28,083 nucleotides of DNA from a virus (Duplodnaviria > Heunggongvirae > Uroviricota > Caudoviricetes): positions 1 through 28,083 of the IMG/VR virus record IMGVR_UViG_2802429242_000010; one strand, 5' to 3'. Both the position numbers and the translations under genes were made by a program. Below are positions 164-27,081 of this stretch, piece after piece. The notes beneath the pieces were generated by a model. It worked only from the letters and a program-made list of their open reading frames with translations. It was not told the DNA's origin and did not search any database. Numbering within the stretch: the first letter of the stretch is position 1; each line of letters opens with the position of its first letter.

Positions 164-406
164 TTAGTAACGCCAGCGGTCATAGCGCTGATATTTCGGC
201 ACTTTTGGTGCTTTAATCGTCTTGATTACCCACACTACTGCAATCGCCAACAGCAGCCACGGCAACAACTTGATCATCAATGCCAGCATACCGCCGAGGA
301 ACATAATGGCCGTCGCCACAACCAGCGCGGCGATAATACCCAGCAACGAAACACCAGTGACCATCAACATGACAAAAAAGCCAATAACGAAAAGTAGTTC
401 CAGCAT
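164..406 (-). CDS. pspG: Phage shock protein G (small inner-membrane protein)
   Basis: ORF 164..481 contains a sequence I recognise as PspG starting at the internal Met (MLELLFVIGFFVML...KYQRYDRWRY, 80 aa). Two hydrophobic helices. Sits next to dusA as in enterobacterial chromosomes. Confidence 0.85.
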   Translation of the reverse strand: MLELLFVIGFFVMLMVTGVSLLGIIAALVVATAIMFLGGMLALMIKLLPWLLLAIAVVWVIKTIKAPKVPKYQRYDRWRY

Positions 407-437
407 GATGTTCTCCCAAAAATGAAATCTCTTGCTG

Positions 438-458
438 CCATTACAAGAATCATGCCAA
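438..458 (-). promoter_or_regulatory. Candidate sigma-54 (-24/-12) promoter of pspG
   Basis: Minus-strand sequence TTGGCATGATTCTTGTAAT about 30 nt upstream of the pspG start fits the GG-N10-(G/T)C sigma-54 pattern and resembles the pspA promoter (TGGCACGCAAATTGT). The psp regulon is known to be sigma-54/PspF dependent. Confidence 0.5.
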
Positions 459-541
459 AAACTAATATATTGATTTATCAAAGAAAACGCCCCGCGACCG
501 TGCGCAGGGCGTAGTGAATTTGACTACTTTATGGTGAAAAA

Positions 542-1579
542 TTAACGCTTGTCCGCCACCAGTTTGAGCGCGTGTTCCAGCACGTTAATATCGGCACCTG
601 CTTTATGGGCATTTTCACTTAAATAACGCCGCCACTGCCGCGCGCCAGGGATCCCCTGGAACAACCCCAACATATGGCGGGTGATATGACCGAGATACGT
701 ACCCTGGCTAAGCTCGCGTTCAATGTACGGATACATGGCTCGTACCACCGCCACCGGATCGGCATCGGTATCCGAGGAACCAAAAATCTCACGATCCACC
801 GCCGCCAGAATGCCGGGGTTTTGATACGCCTCGCGCCCGACCATCACACCATCCATATGTTGCAAATGCGCTTTAGCCTCTTCCAGCGACTTAATACCAC
901 CGTTAATCGACATCGTCAGATGCGGGAAATCACGCTTCAGTTGATAGACGCGCGGGTAATCGAGCGGCGGGATTTCACGGTTTTCTTTCGGACTTAAACC
1001 AGAAAGCCAGGCTTTACGCGCGTGGATGATAAACATCTCGCATTCGCCTTTGCCGGAAACGGTGTTGATGAAATCACAGAGAAATTCATAACTGTCCTGA
1101 TCATCAATGCCAATACGCGTTTTCACCGTCACCGGAATCGACACCACATCGCGCATCGCTTTCACGCAGTCGGCTACCAATTGCGCATTGCCCATCAGGC
1201 ACGCGCCAAACATCCCGTTCTGCACCCGGTCAGATGGGCAGCCAACATTCAGGTTGATCTCATCGTATCCGCGCGCTTGTGCCAGCTTCGCACATTGCGC
1301 CAGCGCCGCCGGATCGCTTCCACCCAACTGCAACGCCACCGGATGCTCTTCTTCACTGTACGCCAGGTAATCACCTTTACCGTGAATAATCGCCCCGGTG
1401 GTCACCATTTCGGTATAGAGCAACGTATTGCGGGAAAGCAGACGCAGGAAATAGCGGCAGTGTCTGTCCGTCCAGTCGAGCATAGGAGCAATGCTAAACC
1501 GAGAATTCCAGTAAACACCAGTTTTTTCAGGCATCACGCTGGTTTGATTAATTTTTTGTGTTTCATGATTATCGTGCAT
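542..1579 (-). CDS. dusA: tRNA-dihydrouridine synthase A
   Basis: 345-aa ORF with the conserved Dus/TIM-barrel core ([21 protein letters not shown], catalytic Cys region) that I recognise as enterobacterial DusA. Its 5' end directly abuts the integrase gene. Confidence 0.9.
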
Positions 1580-1667
1580 TTTTGAACATTTCAGGCTATT
1601 TTTCTCGCGTTAGGTTCCCGCACAGGTTCCCACGTTTTATGGGAACCCGAAATAACGAGGTCGTGTA

Positions 1668-2765: not shown

Positions 2766-2785
2766 CACTGTTTATCCATACAGTT
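2766..2785. promoter_or_regulatory. LexA (SOS) box 1 upstream of the dinI-like gene
   Basis: cACTGTttatccatACAGtt matches CTGT-N8-ACAG. Confidence 0.6.
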
Positions 2786-2793
2786 AAAAATAA

Positions 2794-2813
2794 TACTGTA
2801 TACAAACACAGTA
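2794..2813. promoter_or_regulatory. LexA (SOS) box 2 upstream of the dinI-like gene
   Basis: TACTGTatacaaacACAGTA is a close match to the TACTG(TA)5CAGTA consensus. Lies about 15 nt upstream of RBS AGAGGG and the ATG at 2827. Confidence 0.7.
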
Positions 2814-2826
2814 TAGAGGGACTTTT

Positions 2827-3075
2827 ATGCGTATTGAAATCTGCATAGCCAAAGAAAAAATGACTAAAATGCCAACCGGTGCTGTGGATGCGTTAAAGGA
2901 AGAATTAACCCGACGCATCAGTAAACGTTATGACGATGTAGAGGTGATCGTAAAAGCCACCAGCAACGATGGCCTTTCTATTACGCGCACCGCCGATAAA
3001 GATTCAGCTAAAACTTTTGTTCAGGAGACTCTGAAAGATACCTGGGAATCTGCTGACGAGTGGTTTGTTCACTAA
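2827..3075 (+). CDS. dinI: DinI-family DNA-damage-inducible protein (prophage copy)
   Basis: 82 aa, MRIEI...[16 protein letters not shown], which I recognise as DinI-like (DinI ends ...QETWESADDWFV). Preceded by two LexA boxes. Confidence 0.85.
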
Positions 3076-3242
3076 TTAACACGTAAAATCGGTAACGGCT
3101 GGAAATCATTCAATACTCGCACTATCGAAAGTTCGCCAGCCAGCCGCAGCACGTTCTTGCATACGACGTGGCTGCGGCTTCCAACATTAGACAAATAACT
3201 CTTTAAGTTGCCTTTAAATTAATACCAGCACCGCGCCGGATG

Positions 3243-3683
3243 TCATCTGGCCTGAACTGCCGGAGGCGTAGGCCATTCAATATCTGGAGCACTGGAGGTA
3301 TCAACCAGTTCCAGTGCGTCCAGATAATCCAGCCACAAATTATATTGCGCCAGTTCCTCACCTTTCAGACGACCAATAGCTGCTTTACCTGGCCATTGCC
3401 TGTTATTCATGTGCTCATTGGCAGTATCTATGCGCCGCTGACGCTCGTATTCTGCCATCTTTATCAGTTCTTCAGGTGCCAGTGGCGGAATATCACTCCA
3501 TACGGGATAACCATCATCACCCGCAATCCTCATTTTTCCCTCCGGTGGCTTCTGAAATGCAGAAAAAGTTTCTTCATCAACCTCCACGCCTTTTTCTGGC
3601 CATAACCCCACGGATTCATAATGTAATTTCAAAGCCAACGGATAGAAGGCGTTAGTTTTTGCATCATAAATATATTTGTTCAT
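3243..3683 (-). CDS. Tail fiber assembly protein (Tfa-like chaperone)
   Basis: 146 aa, directly downstream of the tail fiber gene. C-terminal region with the NLWLDYLDAL-type motif typical of Tfa proteins. Confidence 0.8.
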   Translation of the reverse strand: MNKYIYDAKTNAFYPLALKLHYESVGLWPEKGVEVDEETFSAFQKPPEGKMRIAGDDGYPVWSDIPPLAPEELIKMAEYERQRRIDTANEHMNNRQWPGKAAIGRLKGEELAQYNLWLDYLDALELVDTSSAPDIEWPTPPAVQAR

Positions 3684-3685
3684 TT

Positions 3686-4327
3686 TTATTTCCCTATTGC
3701 AATCCAGTTAGCGCCAGCACCCGTTCCGCCAGTACGAGAACTCATTAAATAAAATGCAAGTAGTCCGCCTCCTGCCGGAGTTGTCGCAAAGGCAGGGCAA
3801 TCTGTCGCACCGTTAATTGCACTGTCAAAAGACGTGGCAATACGATAACCAGATGTAAAAGGAATCGGGAAGTTAACAGTTGTTGGATAGCCGATTGGCC
3901 CTGCAATACTGACGCCAAACTGTATGATTGTACCATCCGGAAATTTCATCCAGCCTGGCCCCGACGTGAAGCTAGCCATATCCGGGATCTGATTTACCCC
4001 GGTTCCAACCTCCCGTTTTGCCGCTTCTCCCAAACCAAGGTTTTCGAGAGCCGTTTTCACCGTGCCGTCCGATTTGATATCGCCAAACGGATTTTTGCGG
4101 CTTAACAGTAGCGCACTAAGCGCGGTAAGCAGCTGGTCGTGCCGCCCCTTCTCCAGGCTGGCACCGGATGCCTCCACCACGCCGCAAAGCTCCTCCTGCA
4201 ACATGTCAAAGTAGTCATCATCCAGATCGGTGGCAGGTGTGCCGGTCTGGGGGTTACCACGGGTAAAACCGTTCTTACCCGCGCCGAACTTATCCTTCTG
4301 CGCGGTTTTCGTGTCTATACGATGCAT
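3686..4327 (-). CDS. Tail fiber protein (short, 213 aa)
   Basis: Position between baseplate genes and tfa. N-terminus [46 protein letters not shown] resembles conserved tail-fiber N-termini; Gly-rich C-terminal tip. Confidence 0.65.
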
Positions 4328-4915: not shown

Positions 4916-5964
4916 GAAATCGCCCCCAGAACCGCCAGTTCATTTTTCGCAATGGTGATATTGTCCGCCGGAGCAAGCAACTGATGGCTGTATTCCCCGT
5001 TCGCACCGGAAATCGCTTCACTGATACGCGACACCTTCAGTTCTCCCTGCGGATAACCATCACGCAGCAGGAACGAACGCAACTCGGCGGTGATGGCAGC
5101 CCGTATTTCCGGTGTATCCGGCGTCACACGGATATGAAAATCCACCGTATGTGCCACCGGCCTGAACACATACAAATCAGAGCCTGCCACCGGGGCCAGT
5201 GGCTCGATATGTTGTCTTGCCGCCGTTTCCGTTGATTCTTCCGGAATGGGATTAATCAGGTCACTGCTGGCAATCATCACACCGACAGTTCCCGTTCCCA
5301 TCCAGTGACGGTATGTCCATGCGCGGGTAATACCGGGCACTTCTTTAGCCCAGACTACATAGTCCCCGTCAGCCCCGCCCTGCGGCGTCCAGTAATACCG
5401 CTCAATGACGCGGGCGCGCCACGTTTCCAGCTCTTCAGTATCAAATCCGCCTGTCAGGGTGTCAGCCACACCGGAAGACGGCAGACCATTCACCGGCGTG
5501 ACCAGGATTAATGCCGTACCGTCGTCAGCGTTACCGACCGCGCCTGCATTTGAGCAGGCGATCGGCACGCGCAGGACACCACCGGAGCTGGTTGCATCGG
5601 CAGTTGCAGTATACTGAACCAGGTCATCGCGCTGAATAACACTCCCGGCGGTCACCTTCAGGCCATCGCTGACACCTTCCCAGCGCATATACCCGCTGGC
5701 AGCCGTGGCCCCCTTGCGCGGACACCGTTTCATCGCAGCATGTCGCGCCAGCCAGGACTCATCGCACAGGTCAGGCAGCATGTTCATTGCCAGATAATCG
5801 ATGTACCCGTAAACCGTATGCAGCGCCGCCGCATACACCTTTGCCCGCACGTCTTCATCCATGCGCCGGAGCGTGTCGCTGACGTCCAGCCTGGCGAATA
5901 AATCGTTACGGAGCATACTGATATTTTCTGCCAGCGTCGGGCGCTGAAATTCACTGTCCGCCAT
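4906..5964 (-). CDS. Baseplate J-like protein (Mu gp47-like)
   Basis: 352 aa; size and position in the baseplate cluster, overlapping neighbours on both sides (translational coupling). Confidence 0.75.
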
Positions 5965-24246: not shown

Positions 24247-26037
24247 ATGAGCACAGAATTAAAACTAAAGAAAATTATGGCATCGTCTAAAATTGAGCCA
24301 TTTATTAGACATATTCGTTTTCCTTTTTTTAAAAACCTTGCAGAGGGTAGCAAGATTGATTTTGAGTATCCAATTACAGCATTAGTTGGTCAAAACGGGA
24401 CCAATAAAAGTTCTGTTTTAAGAGCCCTATTCGGTTCTCCAAACAACTATTCTCTGGGTAGCTTATGGTTTTCTACAGATGTAGATGAGATTAAAGATGG
24501 TGGTCGTTCTAGATTTATTTATGGATATTATGACAAAGCTACTGATTCAATTGTTGAAGTAATTAAAACTCGAATCTCTAAAGAAAATGATCCTGATTAC
24601 TGGGAACCATCCAGACCATTAAAATCCGACAACATGGCTCCAATGCCTAGTACAAAAATCTCAACCAATCAACTAAGGACTAGGTGGAAAGCTATTGACA
24701 AAAATGTAATATATTTAGATTTCAGAGCAACTATCAGTGCATTTGATAAGTTCTTTTATCACTCTGATTTTCATACATACCCTAAGAAAGATTATCTTAG
24801 AAAACGCAGTCAGATGCTAAAAGACATTATAGATAACGATCTTAAAAAATATCAACCTCATAAAGGAAAAAAAGACAAGCTATTTGTTAACACTTTATTA
24901 GAAAAAAGTAAGGTAGAGGCAATCAGCAAGATTTTAGGTCGCAAATACACAAGCATCCGCCTTATTGAACATAGCTTATTCACTAATGACAAAGCTCCCA
25001 CAATTATTCTTCAATCAGAAAACTTAAAATATTCTGAAGCTTTCGCAGGCAGTGGGGAATTTGCTGTATCTATATTAGTGCATAAACTAATGGATAGCCC
25101 TGATGCATCTTTAATTCTGCTAGATGAACCTGAAGTATCACTTCACCCTTCTGCTCAATGTCAATTGATGGAATTTTTATCAGAACAAGCACTTAAAAAG
25201 AAACATCAAATTGTCATATCCACACATTCATCAACAATAGTAAAAGACTTGCCTAAAAATGCCATAAAATTATTCTGTCTGAATGATAAAGTAGGAAAGG
25301 TTGATGTTCTTCAAAATGTCAGCCCAGAAGAATCTTTCTTTATTCTTGGTGAACGCATTGATAAAAGAACCGTTATTGTAGAAGATCGGTTAGCGAAGAG
25401 GTTTGTAGAAAAGGCGCTTAAAGCGGGTGGTGAAGCATTATTAAACTCCTTCGAAGTAAAACATGTTCCTGGAGGAGCGGGAAGTATTCTTCAAACTTTG
25501 GCTGTGCCTTTATGTGTTGCCAATGTTAAAAACGTTATTTTCTTATTAGATGGTGACCAATCGAGAACTGATGATTATCCAACTTCTGATTCCATACCAG
25601 AAAATCAAAACACAAACCTTCAAAACATCATAAAAGAAATAACCAATCAAGATATAAAATTTAGTTGTGATGGTTCTAATGGCTCATCAAATAACAATCA
25701 AAAATACAAAATGCAAAGAAATTTTATCGATTTCATCCACGATAAAATTGCTTTTCTTCCTGTTTATACTCCTGAAGCATTTCTTATTGAGAATGTTCAT
25801 GGTGATTATAAAGAATATAAAGATCAAATCCCCAAAAACATTCAAGATGCTAAAGAAATCACCAAAGAACTTTGTAAGTTAGACACAGGGTTGGAGAACG
25901 TTACCAGTGACGATATCTTTGAAACACAAATCAGAATTCTTAATAAAATACCAAATAATCATGAAGTGTTAACAAAAACTCGAGAGTTGCTGCAAATCTT
26001 TTTAGATAATGATACTATCAGACCAAGAGTGAGGTAG
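24247..26037 (+). CDS. P-loop ATPase with Toprim-like C-terminal region (OLD / PARIS-like architecture); candidate ATP-dependent nuclease
   Basis: 596 aa. N-terminal Walker A (ALVGQNGTNKSSVL), ABC-like region (FAGSGEFA), Walker B (LILLDEPEVSLHP) and H-loop-like VISTHS. C-terminal half has Toprim-like acidic motifs (TVIVEDRLAKRF and NVIFLLDGDQ). Strongly AT-rich. Domain calls are by-eye motif recognition. Confidence 0.6.
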   Translation: MSTELKLKKIMASSKIEPFIRHIRFPFFKNLAEGSKIDFEYPITALVGQNGTNKSSVLRALFGSPNNYSLGSLWFSTDVDEIKDGGRSRFIYGYYDKATDSIVEVIKTRISKENDPDYWEPSRPLKSDNMAPMPSTKISTNQLRTRWKAIDKNVIYLDFRATISAFDKFFYHSDFHTYPKKDYLRKRSQMLKDIIDNDLKKYQPHKGKKDKLFVNTLLEKSKVEAISKILGRKYTSIRLIEHSLFTNDKAPTIILQSENLKYSEAFAGSGEFAVSILVHKLMDSPDASLILLDEPEVSLHPSAQCQLMEFLSEQALKKKHQIVISTHSSTIVKDLPKNAIKLFCLNDKVGKVDVLQNVSPEESFFILGERIDKRTVIVEDRLAKRFVEKALKAGGEALLNSFEVKHVPGGAGSILQTLAVPLCVANVKNVIFLLDGDQSRTDDYPTSDSIPENQNTNLQNIIKEITNQDIKFSCDGSNGSSNNNQKYKMQRNFIDFIHDKIAFLPVYTPEAFLIENVHGDYKEYKDQIPKNIQDAKEITKELCKLDTGLENVTSDDIFETQIRILNKIPNNHEVLTKTRELLQIFLDNDTIRPRVR

Positions 26038-26040
26038 ATA

Positions 26041-27081
26041 ATGGCTAAAAAGATACACGTTTACGATTTCTTTTCCGGCTGCGGCGGAACCAGTGTAGGC
26101 CTAAAAGCGGTGGGAATGGAAATTATTTTCGGTTTAGATATTGATCTAGACTCCGCTAACACCTTTAAAATGAATAATCCATTTGCACATTTTATCAATG
26201 GTGATATCAAAGATACACACGTTGAGGAAATTAAGCATCTGGTTTGTGCGTCAACACAAAGCAAAGCTCTAACCCTTTTTTGTGGTTGTGCTCCATGTCA
26301 ACCATTCTCGAAACAAAATAAAATACGGAACGAGGATGATCCGAGAAAAGATCTGCTTACTGAGTTTGCACGGTTTGTCTCTTATTATACGCCAGACTTT
26401 GTACTGGTAGAGAATGTACCAGGAATCCAAAATGTCGATATTAACAATGGAAATTTCCAGAAATTTCTTGAGGTTTTAGCACATCATCACTACAACGTTG
26501 ATTTTGGTGTGATTCCTGCGTTGTGGTTCGGGGTTCCTCAAACACGTGAACGTTTTGTTTTACTGGCGTCAAAACACACGAATATTAAGCTTCCATCACA
26601 AACTCATGATGGATTAAAAACTCCGTATGCAACTGTCAGAGACTGGATCGGCGGATTACCTCCTATTGCTGCCGGTGAAACTCATAAAGATGTTATGGAT
26701 CATACAGCAGCCAAACTATCTGATCTAAATATTAAACGTATTAAAGCGACTCCTGAGGGAAAAGGTAGAGAATCTTGGCCTGAAGAACTTATACTAAAAT
26801 GCCATAAAAAATATAAAGGGCATACTGATGTTTATGGACGGCTTTCTTGGGACAAACCAGCAAGTGGATTAACAACTAGATGTATAAGCTATTCGAATGG
26901 ACGTTTCGGACATCCAGAGCAAGATAGGGCTATTTCTGTTAGAGAGGCTGCGTTATTACAGACTTTCCCATTAGACTATTCCTTCACAGGCTCTTTAGTC
27001 TCGAAAGCCAAACAGATAGGGAATGCAGTCCCTCCCAAGATGGCTGAAGCTCTTGGAAGGGCTATCATCGCATCACTTTAA
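26041..27081 (+). CDS. DNA (cytosine-5)-methyltransferase
   Basis: 346 aa with canonical C5-MTase motifs in order: I FSGCGG, IV PCQPFS (catalytic Cys), VI ENV, VIII QTRERF, X GNAVPP. Starts 3 nt after the ATPase stop (operon-like). Confidence 0.9.
   Translation: MAKKIHVYDFFSGCGGTSVGLKAVGMEIIFGLDIDLDSANTFKMNNPFAHFINGDIKDTHVEEIKHLVCASTQSKALTLFCGCAPCQPFSKQNKIRNEDDPRKDLLTEFARFVSYYTPDFVLVENVPGIQNVDINNGNFQKFLEVLAHHHYNVDFGVIPALWFGVPQTRERFVLLASKHTNIKLPSQTHDGLKTPYATVRDWIGGLPPIAAGETHKDVMDHTAAKLSDLNIKRIKATPEGKGRESWPEELILKCHKKYKGHTDVYGRLSWDKPASGLTTRCISYSNGRFGHPEQDRAISVREAALLQTFPLDYSFTGSLVSKAKQIGNAVPPKMAEALGRAIIASL

Follow-up and report, generated by a model that had tools for sequence, protein, structure and literature searches.

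We analyzed a 28,083-base stretch of DNA from a tailed virus (IMG/VR record IMGVR_UViG_2802429242_000010; hereafter, the window), which comprises Escherichia coli chromosome and a lambdoid prophage integrated at dusA, and in particular a short cassette built around a DinI-like gene. This gene (2827-3075, + strand) is an intact open reading frame (ORF) of 82 codons with an ATG start, identified by Pfam, PHROG, and PDB matches, and it lies directly 3' of a tyrosine integrase gene (1668-2765, +) and convergent with the tail genes, the nearest of which, a tail-fiber assembly gene, runs toward it on the minus strand (3243-3683). A predicted promoter carrying two LexA boxes precedes the gene, and a conserved two-hairpin element follows it. 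The position is as given in an initial annotation of the sequence, that is, beside int and on the strand opposite to the tail genes.

Promoter, operators, and protein of the DinI-like gene

The pattern CTGT-N8-ACAG has exactly two matches in the 28,083 bases, at 2768-2783 and 2796-2811 (28 bp apart); the expectation from shuffled sequence is 0.34 matches, and two or more anywhere in the window were found in 5 of 100 shuffles. Both matches fall in a promoter, TTAACA-N17-TAAAAA, that was found by consensus scan and is predicted rather than mapped. Its -35 hexamer TTAACA (2762-2767, +) overlaps the integrase stop codon TAA (2763-2765), and its -10 region TAAAAAT (2785-2791, +) can be read either as TAAAAA at a 17-nt spacer or as AAAAAT at an 18-nt spacer. 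LexA box 1 (CACTGTTTATCCATACAGTT; 2766-2785, core 2768-2783), which agrees with TACTGTATATATATACAGTA at 15 of 20 positions, fills the 17-nt spacer between -35 and -10, its 20-mer sharing the last two bases of the -35 hexamer. LexA box 2 (TACTGTATACAAACACAGTA; 2794-2813, core 2796-2811), which agrees at 17 of 20 positions, starts 3 nt past the -10 region, lies over the predicted transcription start (~2797-2800), and extends to 13 nt before the ATG, with a Shine-Dalgarno motif GAGGG, read from the sequence, in between (2816-2820, +; 7-11 nt before the ATG).

Scored with a matrix of symmetrized weights from 24 E. coli LexA operators (two of which, the uvrA/ssb and dinI sites, were confirmed in fetched sequences), box 1 reaches 21.4-22.0 bits (heterology-like index 5.78) and box 2 reaches 22.4-23.1 bits (index 5.05). 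The scores and indices of both boxes are within the range of the 24 known operators, among those of sulA, recA, and dinI, and the next-best operator site in the window reaches only 9.5 bits. The claim in the initial annotation that two LexA boxes stand just 5' of the gene, with the second near consensus, is borne out by these values.

The same arrangement can be followed through 17 related loci, fetched by protein similarity and hence of limited taxonomic breadth. The order TTGACA, box, TAAA-rich -10, box, Shine-Dalgarno, ATG recurs in most of them; loci in which this layout is kept come from Shigella, E. coli, Pantoea, Trabulsiella, Mixta, and Erwinia, with protein identities of 56-98%, and include loci in which the identity is down to 56-71%. 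In a search allowing one mismatch, both boxes are present in 12 of the 17 loci, the proximal box only in 3, and the distal box only in 2 (i.e., the distal box in 14/17 and the proximal box in 15/17). The sequence upstream of the relatives' genes reads CTTGACACTGT; the CTGT/(A/C)CAG arms are constant across the relatives and TTAAA(A/T)A is conserved at the place of the -10, and the box interiors and flanks are variable. A promoter is annotated at the equivalent position in the record of phage mEp460. Most near-identical relatives, such as mEp460, SKA5, cdtI, and the Shiga toxin (Stx)-type phages, have a perfect TTGACA; the -35 here (TTAACA) is one base weaker because the integrase stop codon is TAA and not TGA. 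Two boxes were also found in all 22 assessable copies of the 82-aa type among the matches listed in a scan of viral contigs (see below). We regard this cross-genus footprint as the strongest in-silico support for the boxes being functional, and the tandem-box promoter is a subfamily trait common to all close relatives, not a peculiarity of the window.

The 82-aa protein matches the Pfam family DinI (PF06183) with 70.4 bits (cut-off 24.2) over profile positions 1-63 of 63, PHROG 189 ("RecA filament binding protein DinI") with 108 bits, and the DinI sequence in the PDB (1ghh/7ywa) with E = 4.8e-13 and 47% identity, in agreement with the DinI-family assignment made initially. The PHROG 189 profile has 151 positions, of which the protein covers 71-149 only. 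With the NCBIfam DinI equivalog model NF007893 the score is 71.7 bits, under the cut-off of 111, which leaves the protein outside that orthologue group, and the gene is located in the prophage and not between pyrC and bssS. Because of the 47% identity and the score below the equivalog threshold, we take the gene to be a phage paralogue and not an orthologue of host dinI. The protein resembles E. coli DinI (b1061; 1GHH, 7YWA) in Pfam family, predicted fold, MRIE start, C-terminal ETWESAD(D/E)WFV helix, and putative LexA control, and differs from it by 2-residue insertions after A8 and before helix 2 and by the loss of 2 residues in the beta2 region. The genes differ more clearly in their flanks: chromosomal dinI of K-12 has a single LexA box, over the -10 of TTGTCA-N17-TATAAA, and a plain GC hairpin with a U-run at its 3' end, whereas the gene in the window has two boxes, in the spacer and over the start, and a two-hairpin element.

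Cryo-electron microscopy (cryo-EM) and mutagenesis of the RecA-DinI complex have defined a DinI pocket (L13, L21, W71, W77, and F78) into which RecA F203 inserts, and an acidic patch (E24, E69, and D76) that takes part in the RecA contact (PMC9926225). In our alignment with DinI, the pocket residues correspond to M15, L23, W73, W79, and F80 and the acidic patch to E26, D71, and E78; five of these eight RecA-contact residues are identical and three are conservatively replaced. An AlphaFold2 model of the protein contains the elements E2-8, H19-34, E39-45, and H58-72 in a beta-alpha-beta-beta-alpha order, and its top PDB matches are 7ywa_A, that is, DinI on the RecA filament (TM-score 0.70/0.74), and then free DinI (1ghh). 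As judged from sequence comparison and the predicted structure, the 82-aa protein is a DinI-family member with the DinI fold. That it binds RecA is something we infer, as is any effect on induction or mutagenesis.

The ratio of nonsynonymous to synonymous substitution rates (dN/dS) is 0.09-0.40 in comparisons with close relatives; with distant relatives the synonymous sites are saturated, at a dN near 0.2. Purifying selection thus maintains the gene, the ORF is intact, and the gene is not the decayed remnant that, according to the initial annotation, would have counted against its reading.

The two-hairpin element and its copies elsewhere

The conserved 3' element lies at 3094-3182 (+); conservation 3' of the gene starts at ~3082 (CGTAAAATC). 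Hairpin 1 has the stem GGCUGG/CCAGCC (3097-3102 paired with 3136-3141) and the loop AAAUCAUUCAAUACUCGCACUAUCGAAAGUUCG, and hairpin 2 (3142-3179, loop CUUGCAUAC) marks the 3' boundary of the cassette; a U-run present in most relatives is absent from the copy in the window. The fold of 3070-3200 has a free energy of -36.4 kcal/mol (z = -4.2). In an alignment of 38 sequences, 89% of the cells at paired positions are paired, as compared with 28-54% when the partners are slid; both sides have changed in 14 of 20 pairs, and none of 500 shuffles reaches the observed values. A plain MAFFT alignment of 94 element copies analyzed with RNAalifold yielded no consensus for hairpin 2, owing to indels, and hairpin 2 is supported instead by per-sequence folds and by the explicit structure imposed on the 38-sequence alignment. 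The covariance model (R1) scores 115.6 bits at 3094-3182 (+), its other matches in the window being weak (18.6 bits on the opposite strand and 14.9 bits at 5262-5344), and it also matches the Pantoea and Trabulsiella loci, which had been fetched by protein similarity rather than by motif. The covariation, the fold, and the model matches argue that the element is a structured RNA, for which a role as terminator or mRNA stabilizer is the default reading; it is also the only part of the cassette that may be new.

The data on strand point both ways: G-U pairs in stem 2 of a related group of copies, those behind genes of the type of Salmonella MsgA (see below), favor the dinI strand, and the fold of hairpin 1 is more stable on the opposite strand. 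No Rfam family was found on the + strand for the window, for an MsgA-type locus, or for stand-alone copies of the element. On the opposite strand, the terminal hairpin of CssrB (Rfam RF02799) matches weakly at window 3145-3200 (minus strand; 22.4 bits vs. a gathering score of 76), and a corresponding match lies at 3681-3749 (+) of L102, the K-12 ykgJ-ecpE locus described below. In Salmonella, IsrC is a convergent small RNA (sRNA) that overlaps the msgA 3' end (PMC2330248). IsrC and Shigella CssrB lie on the strand opposite to the element described here, and only the shared hairpin matches (22 bits vs. gathering 76); by analogy with IsrC/msgA, this suggests that hairpin 2 may be a shared bidirectional 3' end of convergent transcripts.

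A small ORF running through the element was considered, as some copies that lack dinI have an in-frame ATG, and was rejected because two variants (L093 and L188) have in-frame stops with the stems kept and because the changes are compensatory and not synonymous. [quoted passage not shown] Compared by description and not by sequence, the two are alike in being structured RNA at the 3' end of a (here putatively) LexA-controlled dinI transcript, upstream of and including the terminator, and differ in that DinR belongs to chromosomal dinI and has its ftsZ-pairing seed in a Klebsiella-specific stretch, whereas the element here has no special complementarity to ftsZ: its best pairing with the E. coli K-12 ftsZ leader (RNAduplex) is -12.8 kcal/mol, a value that 76% of 4,028 control windows equal or surpass. 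In a survey of Hfq-bound sRNAs in enterohemorrhagic E. coli (Tree et al., 2014; PMC4104026), dinI is absent from the text and supplements.

A scan of viral contigs with the hairpin 1 loop motif gave at least 120 matches, of which the 91 that have 420 nt or more of sequence upstream were assessed. It should be noted that the invariance of the hairpin 1 loop in most copies is partly imposed by this search pattern, and that the following counts hold among the matches listed. Twenty-two of the 91 copies lie 3' of a gene of the 82-aa type and 17 lie 3' of MsgA-type DinI genes, which have one or two LexA boxes and encode proteins ~30% identical to the 82-aa protein; Salmonella MsgA itself belongs to the DinI family and its gene has a LexA box in front, and the MsgA-type genes in viral contigs share the same 3' element. 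The element is 79-86% identical at the nucleotide level where the upstream coding sequences are 53-56% identical (27-30% at the amino acid level). Another 4 copies lie 3' of truncated DinI-family genes, and the remaining 48 have no upstream DinI C terminus, some of them representing decayed dinI. As read by eye, a promoter-like TTGAAT-N17-TATAAA precedes some of the copies without dinI, which also have a U-run terminator, and many are found at the extreme end of a prophage, beside the 3' end of a tRNA gene or ssrA. In four contigs (L178, L215, L133, and L208), the right arm of hairpin 2 continues into the ssrA 3' end (GGGTTCAACTCCCGCCAGCTCCACCA), and the element there abuts the attachment-site core of ssrA-integrating prophages.

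A copy of the element is also found outside prophages. Most E. coli genomes match the cassette query only at positions 259-410, and in K-12 the spacer between ykgJ and ecpE contains the 3' part of a dinI-like gene, decayed and unannotated, followed by an intact 3' element (L102 3712-3876 = NC_000913.3 ~304,211-304,375, minus strand; 93.6 bits with R1). Stem 2 of this copy has changed in a compensatory way, the copy occurs in most complete E. coli genomes, and no promoter or LexA box is found upstream of it.

Cassette limits and prophage surroundings

Phages in which the cassette has other neighbors (2H10, cdtI, CP-1639, and Stx2c phages), with different flanks on both sides, define its limits: the homology starts at 2759-2761, with the first base of the -35 region, and ends at 3170-3183, at the foot of hairpin 2. 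Homology confined in this way, together with the presence of a putative promoter and a 3' hairpin of its own, marks the promoter-gene-hairpin unit as a moron. Of 5,426 complete E. coli genomes, 1,348 carry at least 80% of the cassette; a single genome can have as many as 8 places that match, partial matches included. By tblastn, 133 phage records contain a homologue, among them VT1-Sakai (H0001) and many Stx1/Stx2 phages at 91-94% identity. The same cassette in mEp460, SKA5, cdtI, VT1-Sakai (H0001), and the Stx1/Stx2 phages encodes proteins of 91.5-99% identity, whose existing annotations are DinI-like, DNA damage-inducible protein, or "RecA filament binding protein DinI"; the DinI-like protein of BP-4795 is only 61% identical. 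Similar placements have also been described in a paper on a Serratia phage, namely DinI-like genes with LexA boxes located after the tail genes and in the opposite orientation in many temperate phages (PMC7556043), and the dinI-like gene of PhiKO2 is LexA-regulated (cited in PMC7556043). The arrangement is therefore an ordinary one, in the sense that a widespread, long-annotated, and published cassette is already known and the window contains another copy of it.

Two observations concern the edges of this distribution. Enterobacterial-type DinI cassettes turn up in assemblies assigned to unrelated phyla (L088, titled Chryseobacterium sp., and L092, a Saccharibacteria metagenome-assembled genome [MAG]), most likely as a result of contamination or misbinning. 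In phages with other integrases (L084, L085, L087, and L090; L116), repeated ATGCCCCA motifs with ~10-bp spacing lie 5' of the cassette and may be integrase arm-type sites of an adjacent attP.

On the host side of the junction, the window contains pspG (164-481, minus strand) and dusA (542-1579, minus strand), with the insertion point at the dusA 5' end (window 542-1667). The integrase-DinI junction is common to the isolated phages mEp460 and SKA5, both of which have a dusA-type integrase beside the cassette, as here. In SKA5, a short dusA 5' fragment adjoins the same integrase (L002 2758-2880), as expected for dusA-targeting elements; the fragment suggests that the element restores the dusA start upon integration, as do dusA-specific integrases. 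Beyond the tail-fiber assembly gene, all on the minus strand, follow genes for a short tail fiber, a Mu-type baseplate, sheath and tube, an HK97-type head, terminase, and a lysis cassette, with antiterminator Q close to the right end of the window; the prophage repressor falls outside it. The closest complete genome, that of strain 181.1, has the prophage's left part, from dusA to the tail genes, in common with the window, and its lysis and early regions are unlike those of this prophage. Right 3' of the cassette, SKA5 (L002 4520-6214) and most of the E. coli relatives have an invertase module, made up of a DNA invertase and an alternative tail-fiber segment that can be inverted; the window is without this module, the homology ending at ~3221 with the tail-fiber assembly gene next (3183-3243 compared). 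Between the lysis cassette and antiterminator Q, two genes on the opposite strand (window 24247-27081, +) encode a 596-aa AAA/OLD-like ATPase (PADLOC HEC-04, 124 bits; "ATP-dependent nuclease" in the annotation of relatives) and a 346-aa C5 cytosine methyltransferase; the pair looks like a defense or methylation moron at the position that stx occupies in Stx phages.

Proposed mechanism and alternatives

The cassette is, in our judgment, probably a self-contained moron consisting of a sigma-70 promoter, two LexA operators, an 82-aa DinI gene, and a structured 3' end, placed under the host SOS response in a dusA-integrated E. coli lambdoid prophage. As long as the DNA is undamaged, the promoter would be silenced by LexA dimers bound to box 1 (between -35 and -10) and box 2 (at the start site); upon DNA damage, RecA filaments would promote LexA self-cleavage, and transcription of the cassette would start along with that of the host SOS regulon and would not depend on the prophage repressor. 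The 82-aa protein would then bind in the groove of the RecA-single-stranded DNA filament, like host DinI, and the added DinI-type activity would stabilize filaments and, at high dose, compete for the groove with other substrates that bind there, such as UmuD, LexA, and CI-type repressors. As a consequence, the induction threshold could rise or fall, UmuD could be processed less, or filaments could live longer. The wiring and the protein family given in the initial annotation agree with our analysis; its further suggestion, that the gene could tune the host SOS response and so the induction threshold of the prophage, is not supported by it.

LexA binding and induction by damage are expected here mainly by analogy. 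The dinI homologues of the Salmonella prophages Gifsy-1/2/3 have a LexA box upstream and head a LexA-controlled operon that includes an antirepressor (Lemire et al., 2011; PMC3121763), and in a survey of the Salmonella SOS response they were up 4.6- to 23-fold with nalidixic acid, and msgA was up 3.4-fold (PMC8072944). These genes resemble the one in the window in being prophage-borne members of the DinI family with a LexA box just 5' of the start codon, the Gifsy genes being damage-induced. They differ in having one box and in coming first in a dinI-antirepressor-irsA operon 3' of replication genes, whereas the gene here has two boxes and is monocistronic at an int/tail-fiber junction. Between them, the conserved promoter/operator layout and the published experiments on phage homologues support the proposed LexA control of the DinI-like gene.

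Several points weigh against this proposal. The Gifsy-2 DinI protein is only 44% identical to the 82-aa protein (tblastn), and non-polar deletions of the dinI homologues in Gifsy-1 and Gifsy-3 left the level and rate of induction without significant change (PMC3121763); the literature searched contained no experiments on this gene or on relatives more than 90% identical to it. The operator scores depend on a list of sites of which two were confirmed in fetched sequences, the spacing between the boxes varies between 24 and 29 bp among relatives, so that cooperative LexA binding is not implied, and a Raoultella locus and one misbinned MAG have the proximal box only. Transcripts of the integrase gene meet no terminator before the cassette, and their read-through could lead to expression of the DinI-like gene that does not depend on LexA. 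Finally, the AlphaFold2 model, built from a shallow alignment, is of moderate quality (pLDDT 64.8, with values <50 for the C-terminal residues).

Of the alternatives, the one we take most seriously, though we hold it to be less probable than the DinI-centered moron, is that the RNA is the main payload, with the two-hairpin 3' element released or acting as a regulatory sRNA in the manner of DinR and DinI as a co-passenger. There is strong covariation in both stems, the element is better conserved than the coding sequence (79-86% vs. 53-56% at the nucleotide level), and it follows two DinI subfamilies, each behind LexA boxes; stand-alone copies exist, some with promoter-like hexamers and a U-run terminator, and in the K-12 ykgJ-ecpE spacer the element has outlived the decayed dinI-like coding sequence, with compensatory changes in the stem. 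The G-U pairs of the MsgA-type stem 2 point to the dinI strand, the in-frame stops in two variants speak against a small ORF, and DinR provides a precedent (PMC10907235). However, complementarity to the ftsZ leader is at background level, the invariance of loop 1 is built into the search pattern, the copy in the window has no U-run, hairpin 1 is more stable on the opposite strand, and a plain terminator or mRNA-stabilizing 3' end accounts for much of the pattern. It is likewise only a tentative suggestion that the ~90-100-nt element (~3082-3182) constitutes an undescribed RNA family of Enterobacteriaceae prophages, found at the 3' end of SOS-induced DinI/MsgA mRNAs or behind its own promoter at prophage ends, with the loops CAUUCAAUACUCGCACUAUCG and CUUGCAUAC acting in trans or binding protein.

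We consider it very improbable that the cassette is instead a LexA-controlled induction switch of the 186 Tum/Gifsy type, with a fused or co-transcribed antirepressor. Phage 186 (Tum), PSP3, Fels-2, and Gifsy-1/2/3 do have a DinI homologue in physical linkage with an antirepressor under LexA control (PMC3121763), and the match to PHROG 189 at 71-149 of 151 positions only implies that the family includes longer, Tum-like members. The 82-aa protein, however, starts with MRIE like DinI and has no N-terminal extension, there is no + strand ORF of at least 30 aa in 3076-3240, where 3094-3182 is taken up by the structured RNA element, and the close relatives are equally monocistronic; with neither an extension nor a downstream ORF, the cassette does not belong among the Gifsy/Tum-type antirepressor modules. 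Nor do we give much credence to the notion that the gene is a neutral hitch-hiker or decaying remnant whose LexA boxes are functionless inherited baggage. The lack of a detectable induction phenotype upon deletion of the distant Gifsy homologues (PMC3121763) and the decayed copy in the E. coli core genome would fit, but the window and 1,348 genomes have an intact ORF, dN/dS is low (0.09-0.40), the RecA-contact residues are retained, and the promoter/operator layout is constant across genera while neighboring bases diverge.

With the cassette read as an SOS-controlled DinI moron, its sequence suggests that the dusA-integrated prophage would plug a DinI paralogue into the LexA circuit of its host, as would the Stx, cdtI, and mEp460-type phages. 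Given that about one-quarter of the complete E. coli genomes carry the cassette, with a variable number of matches, the dose of DinI-type protein after damage should differ between strains, and such differences could bear on SOS mutagenesis, on the dynamics of RecA filaments, and on the induction of other prophages in the same cell, Stx phages among them. The 3' RNA element is the more useful lead: if it is a functional RNA, it would represent a widespread, unannotated SOS output of prophages. Should the element indeed form an RNA family, DNA damage would switch on a phage-borne riboregulator alongside a RecA modulator, and a domesticated copy would persist in most E. coli core genomes, in the ykgJ-ecpE spacer.

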